Notes under the pieces: generated by a model
Told to the model about the DNA's origin: nothing
What the model saw: only the letters and a program-made list of their open reading frames with translations
Databases searched by the model: none
Assembly (NCBI GenBank): GCA_051294375.1
Contig: JBJCIZ010000072.1
Location: 1 to 25,487, forward strand
DNA length: 25,487 bases
Direction of reading: 5' to 3'
Source of the DNA: Paraspadella gotoi
Taxonomy: Eukaryota > Animalia > Chaetognatha
Part shown: positions 5,089-25,487 of the stretch, piece by piece
Numbering within the stretch: position 1 is the stretch's first letter
Layout: the number at the start of each line of letters is the position of its first letter
Program-made: the position numbers and the translations under genes

Positions 5089-6005
5089 CGTAAATGAGAG
5101 GAAGGGATAGGAATCGACATGAGGGAAGGAGGGGGAGGGGTAGTGGGGAGGGCTGAAGGGGTGAGAAATGGAAACAATGGATATGAGGTTGAATTAATAG
5201 AAGTAATATAAGAAGCATTAACATTATAATTAAAATTATTAATATTATTAACAGCGTTATTATTAATTGAAGTTTCATTTTCATCTATATATGTTATAGT
5301 TGATTGATAATTTAAATCAAATACAAAATTATCAGTATCATCATCATCATCATCACTAATAGGATAATCACATAATTTACGATTTTTCGCACCTGGAGCG
5401 TCTAAGATAGGTTGTATTGGCGTTGAATCTGGGACTTCGCCGCACGGAAAAATGTCGTCATCGGCGTCGTCTTCCATGATGGACGCCACATACTCAATTT
5501 CAAATTTTTGACCGTCACGCTCTTCCTTTAGTTTGGCGAGCGTAATTTCTCGTCGCTTACGGTTTTGACGTTCTTCATATTGTGCCTGTTGAATGCGCTC
5601 GGAGACGGCGTCGCGACTTTTCTTCAGTCGCCGACATTCACTTTTTTCTTGATCGCCGAGCTTCTTGAACAATGGCGGATTGGTCATAGCGCGGACGATG
5701 GATTTTAACGAAGGACAGTAGTAAGTATTCGAATCAGAACCGGCTTGTAAGAAGTGGGCCAAGCGCAACCCAATACGTTCGGAAAGCATGGACGCTGTCT
5801 GCAGACTAACGAGTGCGTCAAGCGCCGCGTAGCATATCTGTGGGGGCTTGACCAGGGATTTGCGCTCGTCAAAATCCGCAAGATGGTCCCGATGGAAAGA
5901 TCTTTTGTCGAGAATGTAATTCGGTTTGACGAAATGATGGAGATATTTGAGGGAAGGGGCTCCCAAGACGCCGAAAAAGGGCATCGAGGAAACCCAATCC
6001 AACAA
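5073..6005 (-). pseudogene. 5'-truncated protein with the C-terminal part of a DEDDy (RNase D/WRN/MUT-7-like) 3'-5' exonuclease, then a coiled coil and an acidic low-complexity tail
   Basis: SLKYL..V....LDK......DF....L...QICYAALDA matches the Exo III region of DEDDy nucleases; Exo I/II not present (frame closed at ~6090); 3' end hit by transposon. Confidence 0.65.
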
Positions 6006-6031
6006 GGGGGAGGGGCCTCTAGAGTGGTTGA

Positions 6032-6205
6032 CTAAAGACGCGAAAAAGAGGGGGCCGGAAATTAAGATCGGGTCGTAAGTCGGGAGAGTCTACGGAGTAC
6101 CTGGTGAAATCGAGCGATTCAGATCGTGGCACTTGGATGAGCAAAGAGAATGTCGACGACCTTCTTGGGTGGGGAGGACGATTTTTACATCATGATCTCT
6201 TCTGA
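6032..6205 (+). pseudogene. C-terminal chromodomain-like remnant of the Polinton retroviral-like integrase
   Basis: Unlisted frame reads LKTRKRGG..STEYLVKSSDSDRGTWMSKENVDDL (EYLVK..TW..N chromo pattern), overlapping the penton start where the integrase often sits; no DDE core upstream. Confidence 0.6.
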
Positions 6206-7183
6206 CGTCGACGAGGGAAAATTTTTTGCGGATAACAAAAGCAGGGATTTTATGAATAAATTTCCAGACCCCGTCCAATTAACAGGCGGAAACTGGGAAT
6301 GCGCTCTTTTAGAATTTTCATACGTTAATTCTATATTGAATCCTCACAACCCGGATGAAAATTATCTAACCCTTTTTGATTTTCTCTACAAAGTATCGGA
6401 CAACCCAGTCGTTCCAATAGCCACGTGGGGTCGATTTTACGACGTAAAAATACAGGAAGGGAATTTTAAGATGGGGGAGCATCTTTGCGAGACTCTCAAT
6501 GAGTTGATCGCCTCTCAAATCCCTCGTCTTAAAAAGGTTTTTTCTTACAATAACAACGACAGAAAAATTCACTACAAGTTGAAGGATGAATTTCTTACCA
6601 TATCTATCAATGGTCCCATATTGTTTACCATGGGCAATGACAATTCTCCAACGGTCGACAACGAACTGATACTCGGAAAGAGTAAAATAGGGGGAAGTTA
6701 CGAATATCAGTACGTAGACACCAAAGGTCAAACGGTCAAAGAGACGAGGATATTTAGCGACACTACAAATTACGACATGAAAAGCGCGGACGAAAATGCC
6801 GATGGCAAATTGACAATGACGCTTCAATTACAATTTTGCAACGCCCTTTTACTATACACAAATTTTTAAAAATTTTGGCGTACCTCATTGACATTTAGTT
6901 CGTTGCTCAAAGTGATCCCGTTCGAAAGAAGAAAGACCGATGAAGATCCTTATCGCGTTCTCGTCCACGTCAAGTTTCCCATTTACTTGGAGGTCGAAAG
7001 ACTACATTTGGATATCATACACATGGTTATCAAAGACTTTTATGGACACACCATAATATTTGAGGTAAAGAAAAATAATTTTCCCCATTATCTATAAAAA
7101 CCCGTCACTTTTCTCTATTTACTTTTTAGGAAGGACTGACCTGGGCTCTCTTACACTTTCGCCGTAAACTTCAAAGAATTTAA
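6150..7183 (+). CDS. Polinton minor capsid protein (penton); in-frame stop at 6867-6869; intron 7065-7129
   Basis: N-term FYIMISSD..FF.DN..DF.NKFPDPVQLTGGNWECALLEFSY; LLLYTN..LLKVIP; spliced C-term DFYGHTIIFE|EGLTWALLHFRR typical of Polinton pentons. Confidence 0.9.
7065..7129 (+). other. Spliceosomal intron in penton (65 nt, phase 0)
   Basis: GAG|gtaaag...actttttag|GAA; restores F-E-E-G-L-T...LHFRR. Confidence 0.85.
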
Positions 7184-7193
7184 ACAAAAAAAA

Positions 7194-7705
7194 ATGGATA
7201 TAAAAACAATCAAGCTTCCCTTCAGAAGACGGCTCCCCGGGAGAAAATTTTGCCCCCCACGTTATTTAGCCCCCTTCCAACCATATCAAGCTACGGGAAA
7301 AGGAATTGGATCGGTCTTCTCGCGTCTCGCCAGAGTTGTGGTTCCATTCTTTAAAAGAGGCGTCTCTCTCGTTAAACCAGTCATCAAAGCGGCGGCGCCA
7401 GCGGTGAAAAAAACATTAAAGCGTACCGGGGATGCTTTAGCGCAAGAGGCAATTTCTTCGGGCGTTTCAGCATTGACCGACATCTCCACCGGACAGTCGC
7501 CTAAAAAATCGTCAAACGAGCCGGTCAAATAACTAAGGATCAATTGACGCAAGGCGCCATCGAAGTGGTCGGAGACGTTCTCGCTTCGAGGACCGCGGCT
7601 AAGACTAAGAAGAAAAAAAATATAAAAGGGAAACCACAAAGAGGAAAGGGCAAAAGAGGAAGAAAAAAGAAAAGAATCAATCCTCGATTAAAAATATTTT
7701 ATTAA
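7194..7705 (+). CDS. Basic virion core protein (pVII-like), frameshift in the A-run at ~7503-7509
   Basis: QATGKGIGSVFSRLARVVVPFFKRG is the GxG + amphipathic helix motif of Polinton core proteins; shifted frame continues KIVKRAG...KPQRGKGKRGRKKK..KIFY* (7705). Confidence 0.8.
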
Positions 7706-7713
7706 AGAAAAAA

Positions 7714-9151
7714 ATGACGGATAATCTCGTTCGCGCGACCGGAGTCAACAAGGGTGAGGCGTGCGTAGAGAGCGCCCTCGACGTTTTTGAAAGGGTTAAC
7801 GAGGCCGTAGGCATCGAAAGGGTCCGATACGACGTCATTTCTCCAACGAACGCCTTGGACACCGCGAATAACAATGTCATCGCGTTCGACTTACCCCCGT
7901 GTTCAGAATTTTTGGATATGAACTCTACCTTTTACGTCGTCGATCTGACCATAACGAAGAAGGACGGCTCCCAGATAGACGCCATTACCGACAAGAATTC
8001 TTCGTGCAGCGTCATCAATTCCATCGCCTCGACCATGTTCGAATCCGTGACGTTCAAAATCAACTCGGTTAACTTGAGCGATTCCTACTCGACATACGGC
8101 TTCGCTTCTTAGTTTACAAACTTGCTTAATTATTCGCTCGATGCCCAGCCTAAAATGAAAGTCATGGGATGGGTTTGGATGACAACTTCGACGCGGATCA
8201 AGCTCAGACGGCTGCGGCGGCCTTGGCGTTTAAAACCAGAGCCACGATGTTTGGTCGCGGGTCTCTGGTTAGATTGGTGTCTTTCATAAATCACGGGATG
8301 TTTAATCAAAACAAACTGTTAATTCCCCAGGTAATTATTAAATAAATAATTAGTTAAGTATTATATTTTGAAACTAAAATTTTCTCTCTCTCTCTCTCTC
8401 TCCCCGTGTCAGGTAACATCGTCCTTAACTTTTGTGAAGAACGGCGACCCTTTTTGTCTCCTCAGCGGCGCCACGGATCCGGACTTCAAGTTGAATTTGA
8501 AACGAATGCAACTTCATCTGCGAAAGGTCGAGGTTTTACCCTCCATCAAGCTGGACATAGAGAGAAGACTGATGAAACAAAATTGCGTTTACAACGTACA
8601 AATACCAAGCTGCCGAGCATTCACCATAGCGAGCGGGACGAAAACTATCACCATAGAAAATGTACTACCTTCGTCAATTTTCCCGGAAACCCTCGCCGTA
8701 GCCTTCACGTCCACTTCCGGATACCTGGGGAATTTTTCTAAAAATCCATTCAGATTCGATAATCACGGTTTAAAAACTTTAAAGTTCATCGCCGAAAACG
8801 AAATATTGTCCAGTAACAACGGAATAGAGGTTGAATTTTCTAAAACGTCGAACGAAAAAGATTACTCTCTCGCCTATTTTCGTCTTTTCAAAAGTGACTT
8901 TCGTTATAATACTGGTTTACCAATCTCTATGGAACAGTTTGCCTATGGGGGATATTTAACGTAATGTCTAACGTGAGATATACTACCCCGTTTCAAGATC
9001 ACGTCTTACCCAGAAAATTTTCAATTGCCCCGGCGGCCGGATGTCGTTCGACACTTCATCCAACAACGACTCTTTGACCATGCTTGTCTTTTCTACCCAT
9101 TCCGGGACCATCTCGTTGGATTCTCGACGTCAAGTTATTAAGGATTATTAA
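7714..9151 (+). CDS. Polinton major capsid protein (double jelly-roll, PY/hexon-like); intron 8331-8412; stop at 8110 and several frameshifts
   Basis: SALDVF, ISPTN, FLDMNST, INSIASTMFESV, HGMFNQNKLLIPQ|VTSSLTFVKNGDPFCLL, LHLRKVEV, YLGNFSKNPFRFDNHGL, ISMEQF..GGY, ISLDSRRQVIKDY*. Confidence 0.93.
8331..8412 (+). other. Spliceosomal intron in major capsid (82 nt, phase 0, (CT)n tract)
   Basis: CAG|gtaatt...gtgtcag|GTA; joins KLLIPQ to VTSSLTF. Confidence 0.85.
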
Positions 9152-9162
9152 AAAACCAAAAA

Positions 9163-9789
9163 ATGGATTCTACGGAAATGAATGAGATCGCAACATCGGA
9201 TCCGTATTCTCGCCAAATCTATGGTGGGATTTACGCCATCGACACCCTTCCAATTCTCAAAGAGGGTTACGCCTATTTCTCAAATTTACAGGTTTTTATT
9301 TTTTTATTTTCTTACCATAAAAAATAAAGTCCCATAATTATATCCCTTTATCCACATTAAAGGAATCTCATTTGCCCGGGGATCACTGGATATTGCTTCA
9401 TTCTGGCCCAGACCGATATTTTGTCATGGATAGTTTCGGTAGAAAGCCTTCCGATATTAACGTCCCCCCTCGATTCTTTTCCGACGAAAAAAAAATATTG
9501 TTTATCTTAACGAAGCTATTCAATCTCCAGAAACCCAAACCTGCTTGCCCATTGCCTCGTATTTTTACTTTTCATGGGGAGAGGAATGACGCCGGAAAAA
9601 ATAATGAAAACGATTTACGACTACCCGCGAGTTAAGAGCGCCTTGCGGCACGACATCGTGGCGACTCTTTTAATCAGATCTCTGGACGCGGAAGACGGAA
9701 GAATTACCCCTTTTTCACCCCTCTTAAAAAGAAAGAAAAAGAAAGAAGGGAGACAGGGGGAAAACTATAAAAGGCATCAACCCTTTTAA
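9163..9789 (+). CDS. Adenain-family (C5-like) cysteine maturation protease; intron 9292-9362; frameshifts ~9490 and ~9546
   Basis: YGGIYAIDTLP..NLQ|ESHLPGDHW (catalytic His), MDSFG, then AIQSPETQTC / AHCLVFL across shifted frames (oxyanion Gln, catalytic Cys). Confidence 0.92.
9292..9362 (+). other. Spliceosomal intron in protease (71 nt, phase 0)
   Basis: CAG|gttttt...attaaag|GAA; restores NLQESHLPGDHW. Confidence 0.8.
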
Positions 9790-9804
9790 AATTAATTATT
9801 AAAA

Positions 9805-10014
9805 ATGGCCAAGAGAAAAAAAAATTCATCTCGGGCTAAAAAAAAGTCTCAATTTGGCGGTAGGAAAGAAAAAAAAGTCAAATGGGAGGACGTAAAAAAA
9901 GGAAAAAAACTCAAACGGGCGGACGTGGAAAAAGTAAACGAATTAAAACAAACATTTCGAATTGACAACATGTCGAGACTCGACTTTCATACTAAAAACA
10001 ATTTGCGATTATGA
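9805..10014 (+). CDS. Small Lys/Arg-rich protein, probable second core protein; may extend past 10014 by frameshift
   Basis: Follows protease; very basic; contains QFGG resembling an adenain cleavage site; A-rich start context. Confidence 0.5.
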   Translation: MAKRKKNSSRAKKKSQFGGRKEKKVKWEDVKKGKKLKRADVEKVNELKQTFRIDNMSRLDFHTKNNLRL

Positions 10015-10795
10015 GGCAAAGAAAAAAAATTCTCACCTCTTTTCTCACCTCTTCTCGAAGAAAGCGACGCGAGATTTTCATTCGAACGCTCCCCCTCGTT
10101 TCATCGTCTTCTTTCTTCCTCTTTTTATTTTCCTCCATTCTCGATCCACCCTCGCCCGGATCGTTCGATTCGAATCCTGGAAGTCGCTCGCCACTTTTCT
10201 TCGACACTGTTGGATTAGGAGGGAGACAAAGAGAAAAAAAGATTAAACTTCAATTTCTCTCTCTCTCTCTCATTATTATTACGATTCTCGCTATTATCGA
10301 CATCGTTTTAATCGTTATCATTTTCATCGACTTACTTGCGAAACTATTTTTGGTCAAAACTTTAAAAAAAAAGATTCTTCAAAAAAATGTCAAATCTGAA
10401 AAAAAAGTCAAAAAAATTAAAAAAAGAAAAAAAAACTTTGAAAAAAGAAATGGGGAGTCGAGATCGGGGGATTGCGAAATTGAGAGAAAGACGCGTCCCT
10501 CATTTCCCCTCTCCTTTTATTTTCTTTCGATATTTGTCTTATCGTTTTTATCTCTCTCTCTCTCTCTCTATTCTCTATTTCTCTATATCCCTCGTTATAT
10601 TAACCATTATTCCCCACATTTTTTTCCCTGTCAAAACTACGATCTCTTTCTCGTTGACTATTTAATCAAAAAAAACTTTGACAATTCTTCATTCTGTTTT
10701 CTACTCCCACGGACAATTTTTTGTTTATTCTCGATCGAGAGAGAGAGAGACGGGTCGACATAAAAAAGGAAAAAAAAAAATTCGTCGTAAAAAAA

Positions 10796-12061
10796 ATGAC
10801 CTCGACCTTCGCCAAATTCCCTATCGGGGAAAGACTGACGGTGACTTGTCACGCCAACTTAGAGTCAAACTGCGTCAAAATTCGCGAGACGAAGCTAATG
10901 GCGCCGAACTGGCAACAATTTGGTTCAAAACGATCGAATGGCGAAATTTAGTGTCTTGTTTACCCTTTGCCNNNNNNNNNNNNNNNNNNNNNNNNNGACG
11001 AGGAGTTGACTTTCTGCCAAACTAGCTGAGTTAGGGGAGATGGCGTTCAACCGGTTTGCCGGCGCTTTCGAGCCTCGCTTCAAGATATCAGCGAAAGATG
11101 GGCGCTGGTGGTTTCCATATTTCACGACGAGGCCGGAAGAGTCTTCCCGCGAGTGGCGATCCGCGAATTCGGCCTTCGTGGACGGAAACGATGGCAAGGG
11201 TCGACGCCCAAAATTTGCCGGAAACCCGTGGTCCCTTGGAAGTCGGAAATGGGCGTGAACGGCGTCGCCATGATTATGACCCCCGAAGATTTTAGAGCGC
11301 TGAGGTAAAAAAATAATTGAAATGGTTATTTTATTCCGTTTAAAAAATCTCTTTCTCTCTCTCTCTCTCTCTTTTTTTTTTAGATTCGCGTCTTCGAACG
11401 TCACTTCGGCCTTGAGAAGGAATTCAACGAGATGTCTCACCATAGGAAATCACGAATCTCGCGAACGAGTGTCTCGATCGTTGGCGGATGTCGTCGACGC
11501 CTTCTGCAAGGGTTCCGGATTTGGCGAACGATTGAATTCTCTCGGTCATCAACTCCGACGATGTCTACGTTGACCTCGCTCGTGGCGGCTTCCGGGGAGA
11601 GAAAATCTCGTGGGAATAGCCTCGTCCCCGGAGGAGGAGAAGAGACGGACGGAATCGCCTTTGGAAAAAAAACCACCAAAAAAAAAAAAAAATGGCGGCG
11701 CACTGCGCGATCGAACCCCCTCGCTCAAACATCCTCCGCCTCTTCCGCCGCGCATTCTTCTTCTTCCGCTTCTGGAGAGAACGACAAGACGCCCCGGCAC
11801 CGCCGCTGGCGCCGCTGGCGGCGATGGGGAAACGGCGAGAAGAGAGCGGCGCGGGTCGCCACTACAACAACAACAACAACAAAAAATTAAAAGAAAACGT
11901 CGAGAGCCCTCGACTTCGCCACCGGCGAAAGAAGATAAAGAGGAGGATGAAAAAAAGCCAAATGAAAACGCAACAACAACAACAACAACGACGAAGATCT
12001 TAATAATCATGTTTGGAGAAACTTTTGAAAGAAAACAACGTGACTCCCCGAATTTGTTTAA
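10796..12061 (+). CDS. Putative tandem PC4-like ssDNA-binding protein A with low-complexity C-terminus; intron 11305-11383; frameshifted, spans a 25-N gap
   Basis: FPIGERLTVTC..NCVKIRE..APNWQQF and ISERWALVVSIFHDEAGRVFPRVAIREF...GVAMIMTPEDFRALR resemble the PC4 pattern (VxVxxF..VxIRE..GIxLTxEQW); ends LKENNV.PEFV* as read more cleanly in copy 2. Confidence 0.6.
11305..11383 (+). other. Spliceosomal intron in PC4-like gene A (79 nt, phase 2)
   Basis: AG|gtaaaa...(ct)n tttttag|A TTC; also present in copy 2 (~21348-21429). Confidence 0.75.
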
Positions 12062-12076
12062 TTTTTTTCTTTCTCT

Positions 12077-12107
<31 letters not shown>

Positions 12108-12117
12108 TCTCTCTCTT

Positions 12118-12163
<46 letters not shown>

Positions 12164-12376
12164 CGTCTATTTCCTAACTATTTTTTTTTTTTATCTTTTT
12201 TCCCTTTTTTTTATTTTGGTTTCTCTAATTATCTCGCCGAATGTTTTGTATATTATAAAAAGAAATAAAAATTAATAATAATAGATTTCATTTCTTAATT
12301 AAAATATATACACGCGATTACAACGAAAAAAAATAGAGAGAGAGAGAGAGGGAGGAAGAGAGAAAAGAAAAATCCA

Positions 12377-14851
12377 CTATCCTTCCTCCTCCTTCCGCTT
12401 CTTTCTCTCTCTTTTTTTCTCTCTTTTCTCCTCCTCTCTCTCTCTCTCTCTCTCTTTTCGTCCTCTTTCTCCCAACGATCGGAGCGATAATCGCCCAGAG
12501 CCAGAGATTTGAAATTTTGGTTCAACCAGTATCTCTTTGTCGTCGCTGGTCGAGAGACTTTTCTTAGTCAGTTTTTTCGAATAGAGAGTTAGTTTATCGG
12601 CGTCGATTCGCCGCTGAGATGGTTCTGGAGGGGCCAGGTACGTAGAGATTCTCTGAAACTTCTCTCGTGGGTCAACTCTCAGGGGAATGGTCGTCTGCAA
12701 GTTCCCTTAGCCTTGGGATACTTTTCCCCGTTCGAAAGAGCCGGCGAAGGCCGACGCGGATCGTGCACTTGCACGCACCGCGCCGCGGCCGCAACGCGGC
12801 TGGGGGCGCCCTCAAGGTCGCGTGCTCAACTTGCCACGACGACACGCTGTCAAAGGCGGCCAATGGCCCAGCGGAGCGTTTAACTCTACTTCTGTTTCCT
12901 TTCTTCTATCATCCCTTCTTTCTGACGATATACTGACTGACGAAAGCATGGGGAAAAAGTGTTTCGCGGCCGCACAAATTAACATCGATACCCTTCTCTC
13001 ATCTCCAATAGGGACGCCAATCCAATTGGTTGTCGGAAGGAGAGCGGGAGGAGGGGCGGTAAGGGAGTCGGACGTCTAACGTGGTAAAGATTCGATATCT
13101 CCTCCGACCTCTTCTCGCTCAAGAAGGGTGGGGGGAAAATAAAGCCTCGTCGTCCGAGATTCATTCGCTACGTCGTAATACGTCTGCCCATCACACCAAG
13201 AGCCAAGGGGGATCGACGGCGACTCGTTCGATGAAGGGAAGAAGAGTTAAAGCATTGGGCAGTAAGTTGATGCAACTCGGGCCAAGTATTTGATCGGGGT
13301 GTTCGTTGATTTCGTTAAAAAACAAAAAAATGAATAATAATAATAATAATAAAAATGAGGGAATGGAGGAGGGAAGATGGGGAAAAAAGTAAAAAAAATG
13401 ATGACGTTTACCTTTAAAAAACCCGAACTCTGAGCTCGATTCTTTCTCGATAACGCTAGCCAGCCTCGGGAGAAGTTTTTTTGGATTGTTGACCAAAAGT
13501 AGGGGATGTTCCCATCCGTCAATTGCTTCGTATCACAACCAGGGCGCAGCGCGCCAATCGCGCCAAAATTGATTTTGGATTTTCCTTTTCCCTCGTCTCA
13601 ATGACAAAAAAAAGGCTAGTCGTGTTGTCGGGTAGACCCGAAGGCGCACCCTGGCGTCTCCCTGAGTCGGGAAAAACTCGTTTGACGCCCCTCAGAAAAA
13701 GGAAGCGCACCCATCAACAGTTTAGGAGAGCGTCGTTAGAATGAGCCGTGCGCCGACCATGATGTGGCGAGCACCAACCCTCATTTCACTCTGGCCAGCT
13801 TCCACAGACGCTAATGGACGTGACGTAAAATCCACCCAGAAAACCATTTTCGACAAGTACTCCGGACTTCGACAATTTTGACCAGTTTGAAGAGCGTCGG
13901 TTCAATTATGGGTATCGTCCAAACACCGAATTGACGCAGAGTTTGTAAAAGTTTTTCAAAAACGGGGTGGTCGCCTCTTTTCTCTTTCGCGAAAAGTGAT
14001 CCACGTACTCTTTCATGAAAGGTTTTTGACGAAAGGCTATGGCCGAAGTCAGCTCCGTCAACTCCAAACCCAAAGAGAGGCCAAGGCTAAACTCTCTCTG
14101 GTCAAAAAATATTTCTCTTTGAGAGTCGTGCAAGCGACTAGCTTTTCCACGGCGCCTAGTTTGTGATCGTACTTTTGCGCCAAACGACGACTAAAGGGTG
14201 ACAAATCTTCGACCTTGACTTTTCGCTTTCTCGCAAGATTGGAAAGTCCTTCATGGCGTGATGGAGATGCTCGGCGTTCGAAGGGTCGCTTCAAGAATCA
14301 ATCCTTCTCCGTCTTCGTCCTTGTGAGTCCAATCCTCCACGCCCCTCTTTCAACGTCTCGACGGATCTCTTCAATCTTTCCGGCGATACGAAGGCGTAAC
14401 CGGCGTTAAGGTAAGGCCAAACGACTCGCGTAACCGTAACTGAAAGAGGGGGAGAAGATGGGTAAAGACATAAAAAAAAAACAACAACAAAAACTTTTTT
14501 CCTTTTCCCTTACAGGTTGTTGGCGTCTTCGTGCATCAACAGGCGCGCCGGATATTTAGGATCGTGATCGTTGTATCCAACTTCGTTCGACGAGGCGGAA
14601 AGAAAGCGAGAATTCACCGATACGTATCCTCCTCTAAAAATTGGTATGTTTAATTATTATTATTATTATTATTATTATTATTTATTCGATCATTCGTTCG
14701 TTACTTTAATTTTAAAAAAGAAAAAAAATATTTTTCTTGGCATTAACCTGAGCATAGATTCGAAAGCTAAAAATTCTTGACGCCTTCCGAAGAAAACAAC
14801 TCGATCTTTACTTTCGAGAATTGGAGCATGATATCTTGGCTAATAAAAAAT

Positions 14852-14888
<37 letters not shown>

Positions 14889-15055
14889 GGGTAATTAATG
14901 GGGGGGGAAAATCAATCTCTTTTTTACATTTTTCACGACTCACTTTAAAGCGGGTCCCGAGACGTAATAGCACGGATCCAAACGAAAACAATCTGTTTAC
15001 TTTTCTGTAGTTTTCGAATACGTCCCCAAAAATGTACAGTCGAGTTCCTGAAAAA

Positions 15056-15094
<39 letters not shown>

Positions 15095-18000
15095 GTAAAA
15101 GGAATAAAGCTTACAATTTTTTTTGTGTAATAATATTATCTTACGTTATAAAAGAGTAAAATTCTCCTAAATTGTCGAATCTCAAGGCATCCCATATTTC
15201 TCGAATCTTTAAGTAATCCTCTTCCGAAATGAGCTTTTGTTTCGACTCGTCAAAGTATTTCTCTCTCGGGGGCAAACTGTTTTCTTCGAGAGTTTCCAAA
15301 TTTAAATATTTAAATGGCATACACATTTTTAAAGAGACGGTGTCGAATAGCTCTTCTCGACCAAACGTTTTCTTCACGTGAGAGACCGTCAACGGAAATA
15401 TTTCAGATGGGTGGCTCTTGCCGCGACATCTGTCGCAATCTTGTCGCATAAAGCCATCGCAATCGGGACACTCGATCTTGAAGCATTCGTCGACGCGCGA
15501 ATCGATCAAGTTGGACAGACTCGATATTAAAACTTATAACTGTCTCTTATGGTTAGAGTAGCCATCTTAAAGCAATTTCGCAAGCTAAATATTCGTTGTC
15601 TCTTCTTCTTCTTCTTCCATTGGAAAATCCCATGACCATTGCGAAAATCCTCCCGAATCGTATCATACATCATCATCTTCTCGTCTCGCTCCAATCTCAA
15701 ACCGTAATCATCGTCGTAATCATTCAATCATCACGATCGTCTAACGATCTCTTCCTCGTCTAATCCGTTCCCGAACAAGGTTCGGCAGAGAAAGTTGATG
15801 TCTATCGTTTTGAAAAAGAGTTTACCTTTTGCCCAAGACCTTTTCGAATATTTCTTACTAGTTTGTTCGCTTCCTTGATGCGCACGCTTGAAGGATCAAG
15901 TTACAATCGAAATTTAGCGTCCGCTGAAAATAGAAAAAAAGGGTAGAGAAAAGAAAAAATATATTAATCTAGTCGAAAAAGTTTAAAATAAATAGAGATT
16001 TGTTATTAAAGCTTTCTTTACTTGTGAAAGTACATGATCCATCTGTCCGCCGAATGATTCTTTGCGTTGCAAGTCCACGTGACTTTTTAACCCACAAATT
16101 TCCCGTTTCTTATGGTCGTGATGTTTACAAAACGATCGTATGGGGTAAAAAATTCTCTCCGCAAAAATGACAGGTGGTTGCCATGGCGTACGATGGCTTT
16201 CGTCGAGATCGGCGTCATAATATGGGCACGTTTTGACGCAAGAGGCAACCAATAATGATGGAATCTTGACGGGCTTGACGCAAGACTCTAACGCGGCGTT
16301 CTCGCCCAGATATTTTCTCATAGGAAAGTTGTCCAAAGGATAAGACGATTTAATAAAATAACTATAACTGATGGCCGATAATTCTTCCACAATTTTTTGC
16401 GTTTCTTTAATTTTCAAAACACGGTTGAAACTCGCTACATTTTTTGCACGTTTTTGCGTGATCGGCTTCGTGCTTAGACTTGATCCATGACCAATTTGGT
16501 CTTCCATTCGCCGCCTCGTCCCTTCTCTCTACGGTCTTAACTGGGATGGGTCTCGTCTCGAAATCCGCGTAGGCACGAAACAAAATTCCGAATGAAAAAG
16601 TTCTCTCGCGCGTCATACTGTAAAAATGTATTTTTTTCCGGGTAAATCTCTAACTGCGCCGTCACCGTTTCTCGCCCACACAGTCGAGAATGAAGAGAAA
16701 AGGCGTTGGGTGATTGCGTACTGTACAAACACTTGACGCAAACGAAACGTCTCCCTCTGCGAGAACAAAATTGAGACGAAACTAATCTCGAAAAATCCGT
16801 GATAGATACGAGATGGCGCTGAGATGTTTCTCCTTTTTTTCCTTTTTCAGAATAAGCAAGTTACAGACTCTGACGTTGTCGACTGAATTTCTTTTAGAGA
16901 TTCTATAAGGATAGATGACTCTTTAATTTTATTGATTTTGTCTTCTTACTTAAAATTCCATAGACGTTGATGCAAATGTCGGGTTCAGTCTTTCCACTTG
17001 AGAAAATGAAGATGGCTTAGCCGGGCAGGGTACGTCGCCCATTTTTATCAAATGTCGATATCTGACGTAACTATTGGCCCTTTCTCTGTGACTGTGAGGT
17101 TTATACAAACAGCTTAACAAAGCTAAATGTAAACATTCTGGATGTTTACTTTTAACGTTGCAAACGCAATGTTTTTTCGATAACCAAATCGGGGTAGGGA
17201 TGAAGCAACCGAACAGAGATGACTTCCCACCCGAAGAAGGATGAAAACTGGCGAGGGTTAAGTCGGCTCTCTCTATCTTATCGTAGACTAAATCCGAACC
17301 TAATTCGATGCGATCCTCGATTTGATGATGCAATCTCGCCATTACGGCCGCCAATATTTCCATGATGGAATCTGATTCGTTATAATATTATTGACTTTTG
17401 GTCGAAGAAAAATGAATGTAAGAGCCTTCTTTCTCGTTAAAGAATCGTACTAAAAAGCAGAGGATGGAGCTTAATAATTTTCTCTTTTTAAGTTCTTTCG
17501 CGATTAAGGGAAAAATCTCCTTTTTTAAATGTCAAGTTTCTACGTTATACGTTTTATGAGCGTGAAATCCTCCTCGATAGGTACCAATTGCAGATTAAGC
17601 AAAAACATTTCTCTTAACTTTTTACATTTTACATCGAAACGTGAATACTTGTGAGGGGGCATCGAATTCTCTTCTTCTTTTTGCTCTATTTCTTCGACGT
17701 CTCTATCGTCCTCCCGCTCTCCCGCTCCTCCCGCTTCTCCTCTAGTTTCTTCCCTTCTAACCTCTCTCCCGTCGCCTCGCGAGAAGTCGCACTCTCTTTG
17801 GATGTCCCTGCAATGTCTCTGAGGTTTTGCCGATGCTTTCGAGAGGGCTCCCCCGAACATCCTGAGTGGCGCGAGCGTTCCGTTCTCGTCCAGCGCCGCC
17901 TCCTTCACTTTTGGTTGGCGTTAGCGTTCCGTTCTCGTCCAGCGCCGCCTCCTTCTTCACTTTGGTTGGCGTTAGCAGGGTTCTCTCCGACGAGTCTTTC

Positions 18001-18326
18001 GCCCCATCGCCGTTCGTCGATGATGCGAGAGAGAAAGGAACTGGAGATAGAGGCGATGGATACCGCCGAGTGAGCGATGGAGGAGAGGGCGAAACATAGC
18101 TCTCTGAGGCGCCGCTCTTCTTCTCCTCGGGCTCCGAGGAATTGTCCGTGCTATATGAAGAGGCAAGCGACGTCGTTGCGTGAGAACATTCGCGGGAGGC
18201 GTTGATGGCGAGAAGAAGGTGGTCGGAGACTGAGGGTAGACGTTCCTCCGGGGAGTGAAGGGGGGTGGTGGGGGGAGTGTTGGGGGTAAGTTTATTCTTC
18301 TTTCTTCGTTTCCTTTTAGGTGGCAT
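12377..18326 (-). CDS. Protein-primed family B DNA polymerase (pPolB) with N-terminal terminal-protein region; 6 introns; many frameshifts/stops
   Basis: KKHCVCNVKSKHPECLHLALL, INVYG, DFSRL..CVKCL, YADFET (Exo I), IRDSYKF, MPFKY..LPPREKYF, GDVFENYR, LDPCYY, LRGGYVS, EDANNLYG (motif A), KLCVNSVFGR (motif B), degraded YTDTDS near 13620-13640, FFK|(D)EIN, KAKG, KKSLSTSDDKRY. Confidence 0.95.
13316..13411 (-). other. pPolB intron 6 (~96 nt; acceptor G missing in this sequence)
   Basis: AAAG|gtaaac...ttttta[g]|ACGAAATC restores FFKDEIN (conserved FKDE motif). Confidence 0.6.
14440..14513 (-). other. pPolB intron 5 (74 nt) inside catalytic motif A
   Basis: GCC AAC AAC CT|gtaagg...ctttcag|T TAC GGT gives DANNLYG; conserved in copy 2 at 24921-24998. 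Confidence 0.92.
14634..14747 (-). other. pPolB intron 4 (114 nt)
   Basis: CTC AG|gttaat...tttttag|A GGA GGA gives the conserved LRGG motif. Confidence 0.85.
14840..14943 (-). other. pPolB intron 3 (104 nt, (CT)n tract)
   Basis: TTA AA|gtgagt...ttattag|C CAA joins GPAL to NQDIMLQFSKVKIELF. Confidence 0.85.
15048..15144 (-). other. pPolB intron 2 (97 nt, (CT)n tract)
   Basis: TATAAC|gtaaga...ttttcag|GAA CTC GAC within the Exo III region. Confidence 0.8.
15924..16021 (-). other. pPolB intron 1 (98 nt)
   Basis: CAA|gtaaag...attttcag|CGG ACG CTA AAT TTC GAT (Exo II-like NFD). Confidence 0.72.
17876..17976. repeat. ~50-bp tandem duplication in pPolB N-terminus (TPTKV(K)KEAALDENGTL x2)
   Basis: agcgttccgttctcgtccagcgccgcctccttc...actttggttggcgtt occurs twice. 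Confidence 0.85.
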
Positions 18327-18463
18327 GATTCAGTTTTTTTTGAGTCTTTTTTCTTTCTCAGTCAAAGGTTTGTCATCAGACATTAAACCTAGAAAAGTAA
18401 AAGAAAAATTATGTTAGAGAAAAGTTTATCGATCATATCCTCAGAATTAATCCCGTATAAATT

Positions 18464-19012
18464 TTATAATCTTCGCACAACTCTTCGTGAATGGCGCGCA
18501 TCACATTGTCGGTTAATATGACAAATTGTTATCGATGTGAGAGTCGGAACCAAATAATGAAAAACCATAGCCCTAATCCCTAAATTTTTCAATGAGTCTA
18601 TCACAGTGTCTGTGCAGTGGCGAAGGTGGCGTAGCTTGACGAGAAAACGAGATAGGTCTCGAAGAAGAGCCTTGATGACCTTGCGATAAAAACTCTTGAG
18701 GTTTTTGTCGATGTCCTTGCGTTCGCGCGACTCGTCTTTGACCATGAGAAACACCTTGCGATAAAGGTTCGCATTTTGATGAAGCAAATATCTCGACCTC
18801 TTGTACTTTTTTAACTTCAATTTGGCGTACAAGAGGGAAGTTGACAAGTCGTCCAATCGAGCGGTTATCTCCGATATTTGACAAGTTTTTTGCTTGACGG
18901 AATCGGATGAAAACACTAATTTGGTTAGTGCCAAATACAGTTGGTCTATGCCCAATGTTAGATATCCAAATTTGTGGACGGCTTGCAAGGCTAAGTGAAC
19001 TAAATCACCCAT
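18464..19012 (-). CDS. Hypothetical helical/basic protein (element accessory gene)
   Basis: Open frame of ~183 aa from MGDLV; same strand as and directly upstream of pPolB; no family recognised. Confidence 0.55.
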   Translation of the reverse strand: MGDLVHLALQAVHKFGYLTLGIDQLYLALTKLVFSSDSVKQKTCQISEITARLDDLSTSLLYAKLKLKKYKRSRYLLHQNANLYRKVFLMVKDESRERKDIDKNLKSFYRKVIKALLRDLSRFLVKLRHLRHCTDTVIDSLKNLGIRAMVFHYLVPTLTSITICHINRQCDARHSRRVVRRL

Positions 19013-19051
19013 GATAACTAAAAGATAAAACGCAATTGACAAAAAATACAA

Positions 19052-19336
19052 TTATTCTTTTTCAATAAATTCGAGGACTCTAGCTTTATAAGAAGAACCA
19101 TTTATAAAATGACAGTGACAATTGCCCTCGTAAGGGTCTTCGTGAAAGATGTGACGAGCCGTAGTTCTACATATGCCATTTATTTCTTCTTCCAAAGACT
19201 GTTGATAGCTATAAAACGCACGTTTATTGTCCTCTTTAAATATACGGTTATGTTGTACAACGCTATAGTGCCAGATCATACGTTGCTGATTCAAAAGTTT
19301 AATTATAGGTAAACACCCGTCGTAACGATCGACCAT
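19052..19336 (-). CDS. Hypothetical protein or 3' part of the 19303-19848 gene
   Basis: 94-aa ORF overlapping the upstream ORF by 34 nt; may be frameshift-linked. Confidence 0.45.
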   Translation of the reverse strand: MVDRYDGCLPIIKLLNQQRMIWHYSVVQHNRIFKEDNKRAFYSYQQSLEEEINGICRTTARHIFHEDPYEGNCHCHFINGSSYKARVLEFIEKE

Positions 19337-19848
19337 TCTATAAAGTAAAACATTCTTTTACCGATGCTACTAAGAATTTCAAACATATCGTGCGGCAAAT
19401 ACTTTTGAGTAGAGTCCGTTCCGTAAACGATTTGAGTTTCTTTCAATCCTTCGACGATGGTTGGCGTTTGAGAGAGCGCCTCGATGGCTCGATCCATGAA
19501 GATTTCCAATTCGCCCAGATGTGGAGCTTGCGAAAGACTAAGAAGCCTGAGGATGTCCTCTTTCGATTTCTGCCAAGACTCGCCCGTTTCGTTCTTGCGT
19601 CGATGCATAAAGGAGAGGGCGTGGTGAATCGTGTTGTTCAGTGTTAAAAAGTTTTCGTGAAAAACTTTATCGGCATTGATCAAAGTCTGTAAGAGTCTTT
19701 TGACTGTAAAGCCAAAGTATGACTTGTGGTATTGACGCGGCGCCGATGGTACGATGATTCCACTTCCCGGATTCGATAACCAATTAGAGTCGTCATCTCT
19801 CGGAGAGTCGTTTTCCCCCAAAGAATTAGTTTCAATATCATCTAGCAT
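19303..19848 (-). CDS. Hypothetical protein (element accessory gene)
   Basis: ORF from MLDDIETN, immediately after a ttttcag acceptor-like site; no family recognised. Confidence 0.55.
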   Translation of the reverse strand: MLDDIETNSLGENDSPRDDDSNWLSNPGSGIIVPSAPRQYHKSYFGFTVKRLLQTLINADKVFHENFLTLNNTIHHALSFMHRRKNETGESWQKSKEDILRLLSLSQAPHLGELEIFMDRAIEALSQTPTIVEGLKETQIVYGTDSTQKYLPHDMFEILSSIGKRMFYFIEWSIVTTGVYL

Positions 19849-20054
19849 TGTCTGAAAATAACATATACCAATCAAATGTAATCATTCTGTTAGCGCACGC
19901 TTTTGTTTATTTTTATCGCATTCAATTTTCCCATCCCCAAAAAATAAAACGAAAAATCAGAAAGTTTTTTCTTATTTTTAATTCAAGGCAAAATTTAGTT
20001 CATGATTCGAAATAAAAAGTTATTTAGCCTCCAACGACTAAGATGCGGCGTCCC

Positions 20055-20896
20055 TTAAAGCGCTTTGACGATCTTTTTGAGCAACTTAATTAAGTTGCGA
20101 AACTCGTCGGCGTGAAAGAGAAATACCGGATAAGTTAGAGGTGACAAACAAAAGACCAGGTTTGCGTCGAAGTAGTACGGTCGAGGGCCACGTTGACCTT
20201 GGGCATATCGTCTTTCGATTTGAAAATTGACATGCTTATGCCAAGACTTTGCGTTAACGCATACCTTTAAAAATTATAACCGTATTAATTAATAATTTTA
20301 TGTAATTTCTTTATTCTCTCTCTCTTTCTCTTTCATTACTTAGTTATTACCTTGGTCCGTTAACGATGTCCGCTATTTCACCAACGCCTTCCAGTTTCTT
20401 CAGCTCGTCTTCGATCTTCAACTCGTAGAGGCTCAAAAGACGGGTGACTTCTCCTTTGTTTAGCGAGATGCTGGTGACCGGTTCGATGGCTCGCGACTTG
20501 GACTTTAGCCGCCAGAAAAGTCCGAAGTCTTAGGCGTAGGATCGACGAATCTTTCCTTAAAGATCTTGACGCCGTAGTCTTCTTCATTCAAAGTGACCAT
20601 GGTGTATGGGCTCAGTGTCCAGTAGTCGGATGGTGTGTTTTTTGCCGCCTTGTGCATGTCGTCTACTCCCCCCGACTCATGCAAGGTCGATTGACGCAAA
20701 GTTTGAGGTCTATGAGTGTAGGATATGTGTATAATATCTAAAACAGTCATTAATCATTTTTCTATGGTAAATTACCTTTTCGCCAATTTTTGCCCGATGG
20801 GCCTTCGGCGGCTTCATTTTGGGTATTGCGGAAATCATTATTTTCGAAAACGACAAGAGGGATGTCTTCGAAATCGTCATCGTCGTTAGATTCCAT
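20055..20896 (-). CDS. Putative tandem PC4-like ssDNA-binding protein B; introns 20738-20775 (uncertain, 38 nt) and 20265-20350; frameshifted
   Basis: Domain 1 YWTLSPYTMVTLNEEDYGVKIFKE...TSISLNKGEVTRLL..IEDELKKL; domain 2 RYALTQSLGISMSIFKSKDDMPKVNV..RPYYFD...SGISL.HADEFRNLIKLLKKIVKAL*, read across frameshifts; close to the PC4 consensus. Confidence 0.7.
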
Positions 20897-21112
20897 ATCT
20901 AACCGTCTGTAATTATTATAGATTAATATTATTTATAAATATGTATAATTAAATATAGATATAATTTATTAACCTTTTCCCATTTATTGATTTGCTCGAT
21001 GCGTTCATCTTTGCGACGGTTTTCTCTGGTCAATTGAACGATGGTCAGTTGGGCTGATCTGAGAGAGTCGCGTAAAGAATCGATGATAGAGTCGCGAGAT
21101 TTAGCTTCTTGT
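20886..21112 (-). pseudogene. Last two exons of a coiled-coil protein gene (intron 20907-20973), 5' part removed by the breakpoint at ~21150
   Basis: ttttttag|A QEAKSRDSIIDSLRDSLRSAQLTIVQLTRENRRKDERIEQINKWEK|TVRYGI*; last exon overlaps the ATG of the next gene. Confidence 0.55.
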
Positions 21113-21151
21113 CTAAAAAAATAATAATTATTTTTTTATATTCGATTGTAT

Positions 21152-22728
21152 TGGTTTCCATATTCCACGACGAGGACGGAAGAGTCTTCCCGTGAGTGGC
21201 GATCCGCGAATTTGCCTTCGTGGACGGAAACGATGGCAAGGGTCGACGCCCAAAATTTGCCGGAAACCCGGTGATTCCTTGGAAGTCGGAAATGGGCGTG
21301 AACGGCGTCGCCATGATCATGACCCCCGAAGATTTTAGAGCGCTGAGGTAAAAAAACAATTGAAATTGGTTATTTTTTTCTGTTTAAAAAAAATCTCTAT
21401 CTCTCTCTCTCTCTCTTTTTTTTTTGTAGATTCACGCGTGTACTTCGAACGTCACTTCGGCCTTGAGAAGGAATTCAACGAGATGTCTCACCATAGGAAA
21501 TCACGAATCTCGCGAACGAGTGTCTCGATCGTTGGCGGATGTCGTCGACGCCTTCTGCAAGGGTTCCGGATTTGGCGAACGATTGAATTCTCTCGGTCAT
21601 CAACTCCGACGATTCTACGTTGACCTCGTCTGGCGGCTTCCGGGGGAGAAAATCTCGGGGAAATAGCCTCGTCCCCGGAGGAGGAGAAGAGACGGACGAA
21701 TCGCCTTGGAAAAAAAACCAAAAAAAAAAAAAATGGCGGCGCACTGCGCGATCGAACCCCCTCGCTCAAACATCCTCCGCCTCTCCGCCGCGCATTCTTC
21801 TTCTTCCGCTTCTGGAGAGAACGACAAGACGCCCCCGGCATGCCGCCGCCCTGCGCGGCGATGGGGAAACGGACGAGAAGAGAGCGGCGCGGTCGCCCAC
21901 TAACAACAACAACACAACAAAAATTAAAAGAAAACGTCGAGAGCCCTCGACCTCGCCACCGGCGAAAGATAGCATTCAAAAGATATCTCGCGGTCGCTCT
22001 GTCCAATTCATGAATTTTAATGGGAACAGCATTAAACTAATCCATTATTGGTATTTATTATTGTATTAAAATATTTTTTTCCAAAAATGTTCAGAACCAT
22101 GAGTAATTCGCTAATTAATATTATTATATTGCTATATAATGTCAAAAATTTTTTTTGGATATTTTAAGTTTTTTTAATTGATTCTGATAGAGCTTAAAAA
22201 GTTAAGCAAAAAATATAATTACAACTTTTTAAAATTTTGATGTTTTATTACTAAAAATTAGTAAAAACTGTTAAAATCATCGGATGATGATGATGATAAT
22301 AATTTTTTAAGGTTTTTCCCAATTTTAGCCCACTTATCATCAAAATATTGAAAAAAGAATTATACTTTGTGTAGATAACTTTTCATAAGCTATTTGAATC
22401 TGCTTTTAAAAATAAAAAATTTTCAAAAAAATTTTTGACATTTCCTATCTATAAATAAATATTAAAAAATTAATTACTAATGCTTTTAGCCATTTTAGAA
22501 AATTTTGCTCCATTGAAAGTTTTCTCAGAAATGTATGAAGTTTCATTTGGAAAGGTTCCCAAATCAAACTTCTGACCCACCCCATTGACGACGTTTGGGT
22601 CTAATAAAGAGGAGGACGAAAAAAAGCAAAATGAAAACGGCAACAACAACAACAACAACAACGAAGATCTTACTAACATGTTGGAGAAACTTTTGAAAGA
22701 AAACAATGTGCTCCCCGAATTTGTTTAA
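21152..22728 (+). pseudogene. 5'-truncated copy of PC4-like gene A, disrupted by insertion
   Basis: Matches 11109-12061; ends EDLTNMLEKLLKENNVLPEFV*. Confidence 0.7.
21970..22603. mobile_element. 634-bp AT-rich insertion with TAG...CTA termini, absent from copy 1
   Basis: Copy 1 reads gcgaaagaagataaagagg; copy 2 reads gcgaaaga[TAGC...TCTA]ataaagagg; TSD only partly visible (AAAGA on both sides). Confidence 0.75.
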
Positions 22729-22948
22729 ATTTTCTCTCTCTCTGTCTCTGTCTCTCTCTCTTTCTCTCCGTCTATTCCTAACTATTTTTCCCTTTTTTCC
22801 CTTTTTTTATTTTGGTTTCTCTAATTATCTCGCCGAATGTTTGTATATGTATAAAAAGAAATAAAAATTAATAATAATAGATTTTGATTTCTTAATTAAA
22901 ATATATACAACGCGATTACAACGAAGAAAATAGAGAGAAAAAAATCCA

Positions 22949-25487
22949 CTATCCTTCTCCTCCTCCTTCCTCCTCCCTCCTCGCTCCGCTTCTTTCTCTC
23001 TCTTTTCTCTCTTTTCTCCTTTCTCTCTCTCTCTCTCTCTTTTCGTCCTCTCTCTCCCAACGATCGGAGCGATAATCGCCCAGAGCCAGAGATTGAAATT
23101 TGTTCAACCAGTATCTCTTGTCGTCGCTGGTCGAGAGACTTTTCTTAGTCAGTTTTTTCGAATAGAGAGTTAGTTTATCGGCGTCGATTCGCCGCTGAGT
23201 GGTTCTGATGGGGGCCAGGGTACGTAGAGATTCTCGAAACTTCTCGTGGGTCAACTCTCGGCGAATGGTCGTCTTGCAAGTCCCCTTAGCCTTGATCTTT
23301 TCCGTCTTCGAAAGAACGCCTTGCATGCACGCACCGCGCCGCGGCAACGCGGGGCCCCTCAGGTCGCGGCTCTGCCGCGACGACACGCTGCGGCGCCAAA
23401 GGCGCCGGAGCGANNNNNNNNNNNNNNNNNNNNNNNNNNNNNNNNNNNNNNNNNNNNNNNNNNNNNNNNNNNNNNNNNNNNNNNNNNNNNNNNNNNNNNN
23501 NNNNNNNNNNNNNNNNNNNNNNNNNNNNNNNNNNNNNNNNNNNNNNNNNNNNNNNNNNNNNNNNNNNNNNNNNNNNNNNNNNNNNNNNNNNNNNNNNNNN
23601 NNNNNNNNNNNNNNNNNNNNNNNNNNNNNNNNNNNNNNNNNNNNNNNNNNNNNNNNNNNNNNNNNNNNNNNNNNNNNNNNNNNNNNNNNNNNNNNNNNNN
23701 NNNNNNNNNNNNNNNNNNNNNNNNNNNNNNNNNNNNNNNNNNNNNNNNNNNNNNNNNNNNNNNNNNNNNNNNNNNNNNNNNNNNNNNNNNNNNNNNNNNN
23801 NNNNNNNNNNNNNNNNNNNNNNNNNNNNNNNNNNNNNNNNNNNNNNNNNNNNNNNNNNNNNNNNNNNNNNNNNNNNNNNNNNNNNNNNNNNNNNNNNNNN
23901 NNNNNNNNNNNNNNNNNNNNNNNNNNNNNNNNNNNNNNNNNNNNNNNNNNNNNNNNNNNNNNNNNNNNNNNNNNNNNNNNNNNNNNNNNNNNNNNNNNNN
24001 NNNNNNNNNNNNNNNNNNNNNNNNNNNNNNNNNNNNNNNNNNNNNNNNNNNNNNNNNNNNNNNNNNNNNNNNNNNNNNNNNNNNNNNNNNNNNNNNNNNN
24101 NNNNNNNNNNNNNNNNNNNNNNNNNNNNNNNNNNNNNNNNNNNNNNNNNNNNNNNNNNNNNNNNNNNNNNNNNNNNNNNNNNNNNNNNNNNNNNNNNNNN
24201 NNNNNNNNNNNNNNNNNNNNNNNNNNNNNNNNNNNNNNNNNNNNNNNNNNNNNNNNNNNNNNNNNNNNNNNNNNNNNNNNNNNNNNNNNNNNNNNNNNNN
24301 NNNNNNNNNNNNNNNNNNNNNNNNNNNNNNNNNNNNNNNNNNNNNNNNNNNNNNNNNNNNNNNNNNNNNNCCGAATGACGCAGATTTGTAAAGTAGTTTT
24401 TCAAAAAGCGTGGTCGCCTCTTTTCTCTTTCGTCGAAAAAGTGATCCACGTACTCCTTTCTATGAAAAGGTTTTTCGAACGTTTTATAAAAATATGCCGA
24501 AAGTCGCGAGTCTCCCGTCTAAAACTCCTAAAGAACCCCAAAGAAAAGTGTAGGGCCAGGGCAAACTCTCTTCTCGTCAAAAATATTTCTCTTGTAGAGT
24601 CGTTGCAAGCGACTAGCTTTTCACGACGGCGCCTAGTTTGTTGATCGTACTTTTGCGCCAAACGACGACTAAAGTGGTGACAAATCTTCGACCTGAACTT
24701 TCGCTTCTCCGGCGAAGATTGGAAGTCCTTCATGGCCGTGATGAAGATCCTCGAATGCTCGGGCGTTCGAAGGGTCGCTTCTAGAATCAATCCTCCGTCC
24801 TTGTGAGTCCAATCCCTCCACGCCCCTCTTCTAACGTCTCGACGGATCTCTTCCAATCTTTCCGGCGATACGAAGGCGTAACCGGCGTAAGGTAAGGCCA
24901 AACGACTCGCGTAACCGTAACTGAAAGAGGGGGAGAGGATGGGTAAAGACATAAAAAAAACAAAAACTTTTTTCCTTTTCCTTTTCCTTTTCCCTTACAG
25001 GTTGTTGGCGTCTTCGTGCATCAACAGGCGCGCCGGATATTTAGGATCGTGATCGTTGTATCCAACTTCGTTCGACGAGGCGGAAAGAAAGCGAGAATTC
25101 ACCGATACGTATCCTCCTCTAAAAATTGGTATGTTTAATTATTATTATTATTATTTATTTGATCATTCGTTCATTACTTTAATTTTAAAAAAAGAAAAAA
25201 ACTATTTTTCTTGNNNNNNNNNNNNNNNNNNNNNNNNNNNNNNNNNNNNNNNNNNNNNNNNNNNNNNNNNNNNNNNNNNNNNNNNNNNNNNNNNNNNNNN
25301 NNNNNNNNNNNNNNNNNNNNNNNNNNNNNNNNNNNNNNNNNNNNNNNNNNNNNNNNNNNNNNNNNNNNNNNNNNNNNNTATCTTGGCTAATAAAAAATAA
25401 AGAGAGAGAAAGGGGTAATTAATGGGGGGGAAAATCAATCTCTTTTTTTAAATTTTCACGACTCACTTTAAAGCGGGCCCCGAGACG
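22949..25487 (-). pseudogene. 3' part of second pPolB copy (two N gaps)
   Basis: KIKAKGTCKTTIRRELTHEKFRESL..KKSLSTSDDKRYWL; YGYASRLALPY; RGGYVS exon. Confidence 0.9.
23414..24370. other. Assembly gap (others at 10972-10996 and 25214-25378)
   Basis: Runs of N. Confidence 1.

Follow-up and report, generated by a model that had tools for sequence, protein, structure and literature searches.

We analysed a stretch of 25,487 nucleotides (nt) from the chaetognath Paraspadella gotoi (contig JBJCIZ010000072.1; the whole stretch is called the window below), in which positions 6150..21112, judged by their genes, are a Polinton/Maverick-type element with a protein-primed PolB, a double jelly-roll capsid and an adenain-like protease. 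Twelve short GT-AG segments within the genes of this element are very probably host-type introns; they are likely removed by the spliceosome, and were likely gained singly during long residence in one host lineage. At least eight of them lie in the core genes and four in accessory genes. A preliminary description of the same DNA had proposed a Polinton or adintovirus with interrupted capsid, protease, polymerase and accessory genes; the three protein families named above bear out this identity, and the twelve GT..AG segments are indeed spread across all of these genes.

The preliminary description listed thirteen GT-AG segments. Twelve of them begin with GT and end with AG on the strand of the gene in which they lie (four on the plus strand and eight on the minus strand; sense orientation in 12/12), whereas the thirteenth, 13316..13411 (-), has no AG at its named end. 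The segments measure 38-114 nt, are poor in G, and have a GC content of 9-38% compared to 32-57% in the flanks; an exonic AG precedes 9 of the 13 donors. U2-type features, that is GT..AG on the sense strand and a pyrimidine- or AT-rich 3' part, are present in 12 of 13. Retention would break the protein in all twelve cases, as eleven lengths are not divisible by three and the remaining segment contains an in-frame stop.

On the plus strand, phase 0 segments interrupt the minor capsid gene (7065..7129), the major capsid gene (8331..8412, with a (CT)n tract and a 7-nt direct repeat across its boundaries) and the protease gene (9292..9362, just before the catalytic histidine motif), and an accessory gene carries 11305..11383 (likely phase 2). 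The polymerase gene on the minus strand contains 14440..14513, which we take to lie inside motif A, 14634..14747 ((ATT)n-rich), 14840..14943 and 15048..15144 (each with a (CT)n tract, the latter with a frame break close downstream) and 15924..16021, presumably at the exonuclease II motif. All five of these confirmed or likely polymerase introns are in phase 2, which is usually the rarest intron phase. Four of them are packed within 700 nt at conserved motifs, and none occurs in the 1.3-kb N-terminal part. The remaining three are found in the accessory gene 20058..21112 (-): 20265..20350 (likely phase 2, with a 6-nt direct repeat across the boundaries), 20738..20775 (the shortest, 38 nt, likely phase 1) and 20907..20973 (9% GC).

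To place the junctions, flanking sequences were joined with an X at the junction and scored against profiles of 93 capsids and 92 polymerases, all of them uninterrupted homologues. The polymerase homologues were gathered with an IMG/VR polymerase query and thus represent kin of that query rather than the closest relatives of the gene studied here. Excision of 8331..8412 joined profile positions 194|195 and ranked first of 27 local GT/AG constructs; 14840..14943 (739|X|741) ranked first of 99 and 14440..14513 (806|X|808) first of 36, and the named pair also came first among the local alternatives for 15048..15144. The support was weak for 14634..14747, which was only fourth of 18, and 15924..16021 was fourth of 12 with a negative score. 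The named pair failed for 13316..13411.

The preliminary description had suggested spliced protein-to-genome alignment as a check, and a frameshift-aware alignment in which GT-AG was required returned exactly 8331..8412, 9292..9362, 14440..14513, 14634..14747, 14840..14943 and 15048..15144. These six segments split the major capsid, protease and polymerase genes at places where uninterrupted homologues continue without a break. An aligner with no splice rule skipped 82 of 82 nt at 8331, 71 of 71 at 9292, 74 of 74 at 14440 and 104 of 104 at 14840, and close to frame breaks it skipped 95 nt for the 97 at 15048 and 128 nt for the 114 at 14634; for the protease intron it recovered the exact coordinates. 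The chance that a GT..AG pair of the right length falls within the 31-nt slide is 0.05-0.10 per intron, or about 3e-5 for the four exact cases taken together. For 15924..16021 homology backs only the donor, as chosen by the aligner, and a lineage-specific coding insertion follows. After excision of 7065..7129 the F-to-H spacing looks, by eye, like that in 6 of the 12 homologues of the minor capsid protein; the profile alignment did not extend across this segment. With regard to the conserved motifs said to be restored by excision, genes with homologues contain nine segments, and excision gave a contiguous frame at six of them and in part at 7065..7129 and 15924..16021, whereas the FK|DE junction at 13316..13411 was not confirmed. 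That segment of 96 nt starts with GT and ends with TA, is stop-free in one frame, and the sole AG on its strand between 13230 and 13410 is at 13276. Profile homology ends just before its donor and returns about 670 nt further on, and the run contigs differ from the window nearby (joint 13114-13255); it is treated as an intron-like segment with a donor only.

Two further polymerase stretches on the minus strand, ~15650-15923 (~270 nt) and 12760-13315 (~550 nt), have a coding-like composition and no counterpart in the homologue profile; they may be domains inserted in this lineage or portions of longer introns. Aligner jumps at 16919-16949, 16368-16491, 15356-15469 and 14320-14362 were rejected as introns: they correspond to divergent coding sequence and lie outside the top 40 of the splice model described below.

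A rule-based intron scan proved too noisy (37 clusters), and a splice model trained on the six homology-backed introns was used instead to score 9,210 GT..AG pairs on both strands. The six held-out segments ranked 4 (15924..16021), 6 (20907..20973), 14 (7065..7129), 15 (11305..11383), 18 (20738..20775) and 29 (20265..20350). The pairs scoring above the weakest held-out segment comprised the named introns, their alternative donors and four unexplained pairs, and no strong additional intron was seen among them. The four accessory-gene segments are assigned by this model together with the open frames on both sides.

The DNA was present in nine runs from three studies. Contigs of four runs, representing all three studies, were compared with positions 12500-21960, which hold nine of the segments; repeat rows were dropped, and the contigs are informative on presence, not absence. 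In these contigs none of the nine segments was skipped by a joint. Three were spanned intact, with 20265..20350 retained in contigs of runs X1 and X9, 20738..20775 in X5, and 20907..20973 in X2, X5 and X9; several contigs end inside microsatellite introns. Moreover, fragments of a second copy occupy 21152..25487 (no strand assigned); these correspond to 11109-11932, 11935-12849 and 13926-14964, are 83-94% identical as assembled, and contain gaps. The counterpart of 14440..14513 at 24921-24998 keeps both ends, as does that of 11305..11383, and the acceptor of 14634..14747 is also kept. A comparison of copies had been proposed in the preliminary description, and in the two copies within the window each GT and AG that can be seen is preserved while the interiors vary in length and sequence. 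In the polymerase the exons show no substitution in 177 bases, compared to 16 mismatched columns of 154 in two introns (partly slippage misalignment); the corresponding figures for the accessory gene are 9 differences in 425 exon positions and 6 in 79 intron positions.

The differences between the window and the run contigs also bear on selection. Among the 40 listed of 187 single-base differences, 26 were scored, 24 of them in profile-matched polymerase codons and two outside the matched segments; the other 14 were situated beside indels, had no known frame or lay outside the polymerase. Eighteen of the 24 polymerase differences were synonymous, whereas the same base changes would be expected to give 7.0, and none of 1,000,000 simulations reached 18. 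Sequencing error would not be biased towards synonymous sites. The polymerase has therefore been under selection at the protein level while carrying segments that would be destructive if unspliced, and several of the variant-bearing contigs run into introns. Selection on the polymerase with its introns in place is the strongest indirect argument for splicing.

As to mechanism, the integrated element would be transcribed in the nucleus by host RNA polymerase II, and its short AT- and pyrimidine-rich introns would be removed by the host major spliceosome. Each intron may have arisen separately, often at an AG|GT site; the 6-7-nt boundary repeats at two introns would fit small duplications, and the pyrimidine tracts may have been lengthened by microsatellite slippage. 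Polintons copy DNA to DNA with their own polymerase and have no reverse-transcription step that purges introns, and for this reason an intron fixed in a replicating master copy would pass to all descendants. As a cost, the element is predicted to rely wholly on a spliceosome able to handle introns of 40-115 nt, and host splicing is probably a requirement of the lineage. The preliminary description also proposed that the introns could aid nuclear expression or help to avoid silencing, a benefit that is conjectural here.

The closest full-length capsid relatives are single open reading frames (ORFs) of 425-459 amino acids (aa), placed in the same clade as the window capsid with a support of 0.98; gain on this branch is therefore the simplest reading. 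The intron gain put forward in the preliminary description thus holds relative to uninterrupted homologues, these closest relatives included. With regard to intron positions across species, no relative with DNA was found in scans of viral and metagenome contigs, and word-based protein searches with two window exons gave no match. We regard it as evenly balanced whether the element represents a still-replicating, capsid-encoding Polinton lineage that is fully dependent on the spliceosome, whose introns prefer conserved polymerase motifs, and which is one of a hidden intron-rich class scored as fossils or missed.

As a separate observation, 53 capsid homologues have fewer than 380 aa, and ten of these (P0122, P0135, P0152, P0160, P0166, P0180, P0202, P0213, P0242 and P0260) start at profile positions 190-197, beside the intron site 194|195. 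The P0122 cluster has 14 members, of which 11 measure 250 aa and 3 measure 215 aa, on contigs of up to 10 kb. These start points may reflect an intron close to this site in other lineages, or nothing more than a conserved methionine.

Several points weigh against spliced, singly gained introns in a living element. No spliced read was seen, the material being contigs only and no run being certainly RNA. In run X9, which is RNA by guess, the spanned introns were retained and no splice joints occurred; with flat cover over all 30 bins and a longest record of 24,984 nt, the run would rather fit DNA. The contig comparison covers only the segments on the minus strand, the synonymous test covers only part of the 187 differences, and the leave-one-out ranks of the training introns (6-192) mark the splice model as loose. 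Furthermore, the uninterrupted homologues may come from DNA or from transcripts. Finally, the window copy has dozens of frame breaks, and integrase and packaging ATPase profiles (built from 9 and 13 IMG/VR ORFs, respectively) gave background scores of at most 28 bits in this fragmented scaffold; terminal repeats were not found in the window, where the ends of the element are probably unassembled. The frame breaks are probably assembly errors, with decay as the alternative: the 12 indels listed of 220 were all common to every run covering the place, which makes the window the outlier. The scaffold is noisy and fragmented, with tandem duplicates, N gaps, junctions unsupported by run contigs and loose ends at 21152.

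These points bear differently on the three rival explanations considered. A dead copy with non-functional insertions or microsatellite expansions, at whose ends GT and AG occur by chance, would agree with the five (CT)n- or (ATT)n-rich segments at which contigs often break, with the want of RNA evidence and with the missing acceptor of 13316..13411. We give this explanation hardly any credence, considering that splice-blind alignment lands on GT..AG pairs at the low joint chance given above, that orientation follows the gene strand throughout, and that the ends are kept and the exons are under purifying selection. A different possibility is that the introns are real but the element is immobile: the cluster would be domesticated or fossil, its genes would have taken on a host-like form once it had ceased to move, and its copies would stem from segmental duplication. 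The lack of a detected integrase, ATPase and terminal repeats, the many frame breaks and the partial second copy in tandem are in line with this, as is the fact that introns in giant endogenous viral elements were earlier taken as a sign of erosion, according to the accessible part of 10.64898/2026.10.09.758095. However, with a scaffold as fragmented as this one the missing genes may lie outside it, the structural and replication modules are still together, and the synonymous excess among copies excludes a plain fossil, though not domestication; we judge an immobile cluster to be unlikely.

It could also be argued that an introner transposon inserted the segments, as happened in Polinton-like elements of dinoflagellates, and that they are now too diverged to be recognised. 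This has a precedent in the available passages of PMC11957031 and PMC12166617, and the narrow size range and the four introns within 700 nt of the polymerase would fit it. The introns are, however, mutually unlike, with only 1 of 78 pairs closer than shuffles at p<0.05, and this speaks against an introner burst of recent date; neither do they have terminal inverted repeats in common (best 1-8 nt), and their boundary repeats vary from 0 to 7 nt. An old, eroded burst would still be compatible with these values, and we consider an introner origin distinctly improbable. Separate gain of introns that are still spliced is, in our judgement, the likely reading.

The genes of the element are arranged in two opposed blocks over about 15 kb, the plus block holding the capsid and protease genes and the minus block comprising the polymerase and accessory ORFs. 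The minor capsid gene (6150..7183, +; two exons, one frame break in exon 1) is weakly assigned: its N-terminal part scored 23 bits against a profile of 12 IMG/VR homologues, which is within the background range, although the gene adjoins the major capsid gene and its C-terminal spacing agrees with the homologues as judged by eye. A short basic ORF with no intron and no family match (7194..7532, +) separates it from the double jelly-roll major capsid gene (7714..9148, +), which has two exons, shows three frame breaks in the window copy and covers positions 6-435 of the capsid profile. The capsid exon 8413-8961 found 1,142 proteins at E<=0.001. The best capsid homologue (P0121) has a predicted fold (predicted local distance difference test, pLDDT, 88) that resembles the capsids of iridovirus, PBCV-1, Sputnik and mavirus, and the capsid profile also matches capsid ORFs in loci that bear integrase, ATPase and polymerase (e.g. 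L017). The adenain-like maturation protease gene (9148..9600, 3' end approximate, +; two exons) scored 57 bits against a profile of 21 IMG/VR ORFs when the intron was skipped; it should be underlined that these homologues were chosen by a motif derived from the window, and the match to the histidine motif is thus not independent. The protein-primed PolB gene (12484..17378, -) follows profile positions 154-1204 in order, with PF03175 at E=4e-6, above the cut-off. On the evidence of the polymerase, capsid and protease genes the element would work in a Polinton-like manner; the scaffold is incomplete for the full set of membership features.

The accessory genes have no assigned function. They comprise the plus-strand gene at ~11030-11570 with the intron 11305..11383, three or four uninterrupted ORFs with no significant match (17760..19881, -), and the gene with four inferred exons at 20058..21112 (-). 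The accessory ORFs had no significant match in plasmid tblastn or in searches of PDB sequences, PHROGs, Pfam and the ESM Atlas, and a PC4-like resemblance of the 20058-21112 gene, noted by eye, was dropped as it had no profile support. One of two short repeats in a proline/serine-rich ORF (17866-17924) is absent from contigs of three runs; this difference is a copy-number variant among copies of the element.

Upstream of the capsid block, an open frame of 338 codons (5073-6089, -) contains a YAALDA motif which, with no profile support, recalls what we take to be a feature of DEDDy 3'-5' exonucleases. At 2274-3672 (-) there are two long overlapping frames (281 and 210 codons) with element-like GC content and no family match; they may belong to the element, which would extend its boundary leftward. 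The window also contains an 18-base-pair tandem array of about 30 copies (403-1000), back-to-back tandem duplications (3655-4488 and 4482-5088; 94% identity, mostly small indels) that are probably assembly duplicates, and an AT-rich imperfect palindrome between the second-copy fragments (22078-22502; 67% over 440 nt), possibly a small inverted-repeat element.

Surveys of Polintons select for long ORFs or read interruptions as a sign of decay. The background assumed in the preliminary description, namely that Polintons are normally largely intronless, agrees with the available text of PMC8097293, 10.1101/2022.07.12.499685 and PMC10120064, in which core genes are described as, or assumed to be, intronless. 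Its claim that ORF-based screens would miss such elements is sustained by the criteria given in the accessible parts of two surveys, both of which would pass over this one: Jeong 2023 (PMC10748475) used cut-offs of 900 aa for the polymerase ORF and 650 aa for the match, and Bellas 2023 (PMC10120064) used a prokaryotic gene caller since endogenous viruses 'do not contain introns'. Group I introns in Polinton-like viruses are reported in the available part of PMC12220804, whereas the accessible portions of PMC8502044, PMC11131425, PMC6431247, PMC9004415 and PMC11296320 hold no passage on spliceosomal introns in Polinton genes. In the literature covered, with supplements, Repbase and most subscription papers outside it, there was no account of spliceosomal introns in the core genes of an animal Polinton. 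About twelve inherited introns together with a polymerase under purifying selection would mean that intact Polintons are undercounted, and some Polinton 'fossils' may be intact. The element would also offer a clean natural test of intron gain, with intronless ancestral genes and about a dozen gains in 15 kb; the copies would allow the gains to be dated, and would allow one to ask whether insertion favours conserved motifs. A further prediction is that the intron load limits horizontal transfer to hosts with compatible splicing.

Compared to known systems, the element is closest in content to the animal Polintons/Mavericks with pPolB1, as these are presented in the available sections of PMC8097293, 10.1101/2022.07.12.499685 and PMC10748475. 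It has in common with them a protein-primed PolB and a double jelly-roll capsid, as well as an adenain-like protease, a probable minor capsid protein and two opposed gene blocks over about 15 kb, and it differs from them in having at least eight core-gene introns and four accessory ones. Ginger1 DNA transposons also have a core gene with 1-4 GT-AG introns inherited by the family, but are single-gene cut-and-paste elements with neither capsid nor polymerase, as far as the accessible text of PMC2836005 goes. Another integrated DNA virus with host-type spliceosomal introns is punuivirus, a latent giant virus of Chlamydomonas; the part available of 10.64898/2026.10.09.758095 reports introns in 61 of 506 genes, latency-enriched and RNA-validated, and the intron of its major capsid gene is of group I and not spliceosomal. 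In the element described here it is the capsid and polymerase genes that are interrupted, with splicing inferred from sequence. Many intron-type sequences are also found in the introner-bearing Polinton-like proviruses of dinoflagellates (Gozashti & Corbett-Detig; PMC11957031, PMC12166617), where, in the passages at hand, the inserts are recognisable transposon families, mostly acquired after integration, and intactness is called unclear. In contrast, the introns of the Paraspadella element are mutually unlike and common to the copies seen, and the exons that they separate are under purifying selection.

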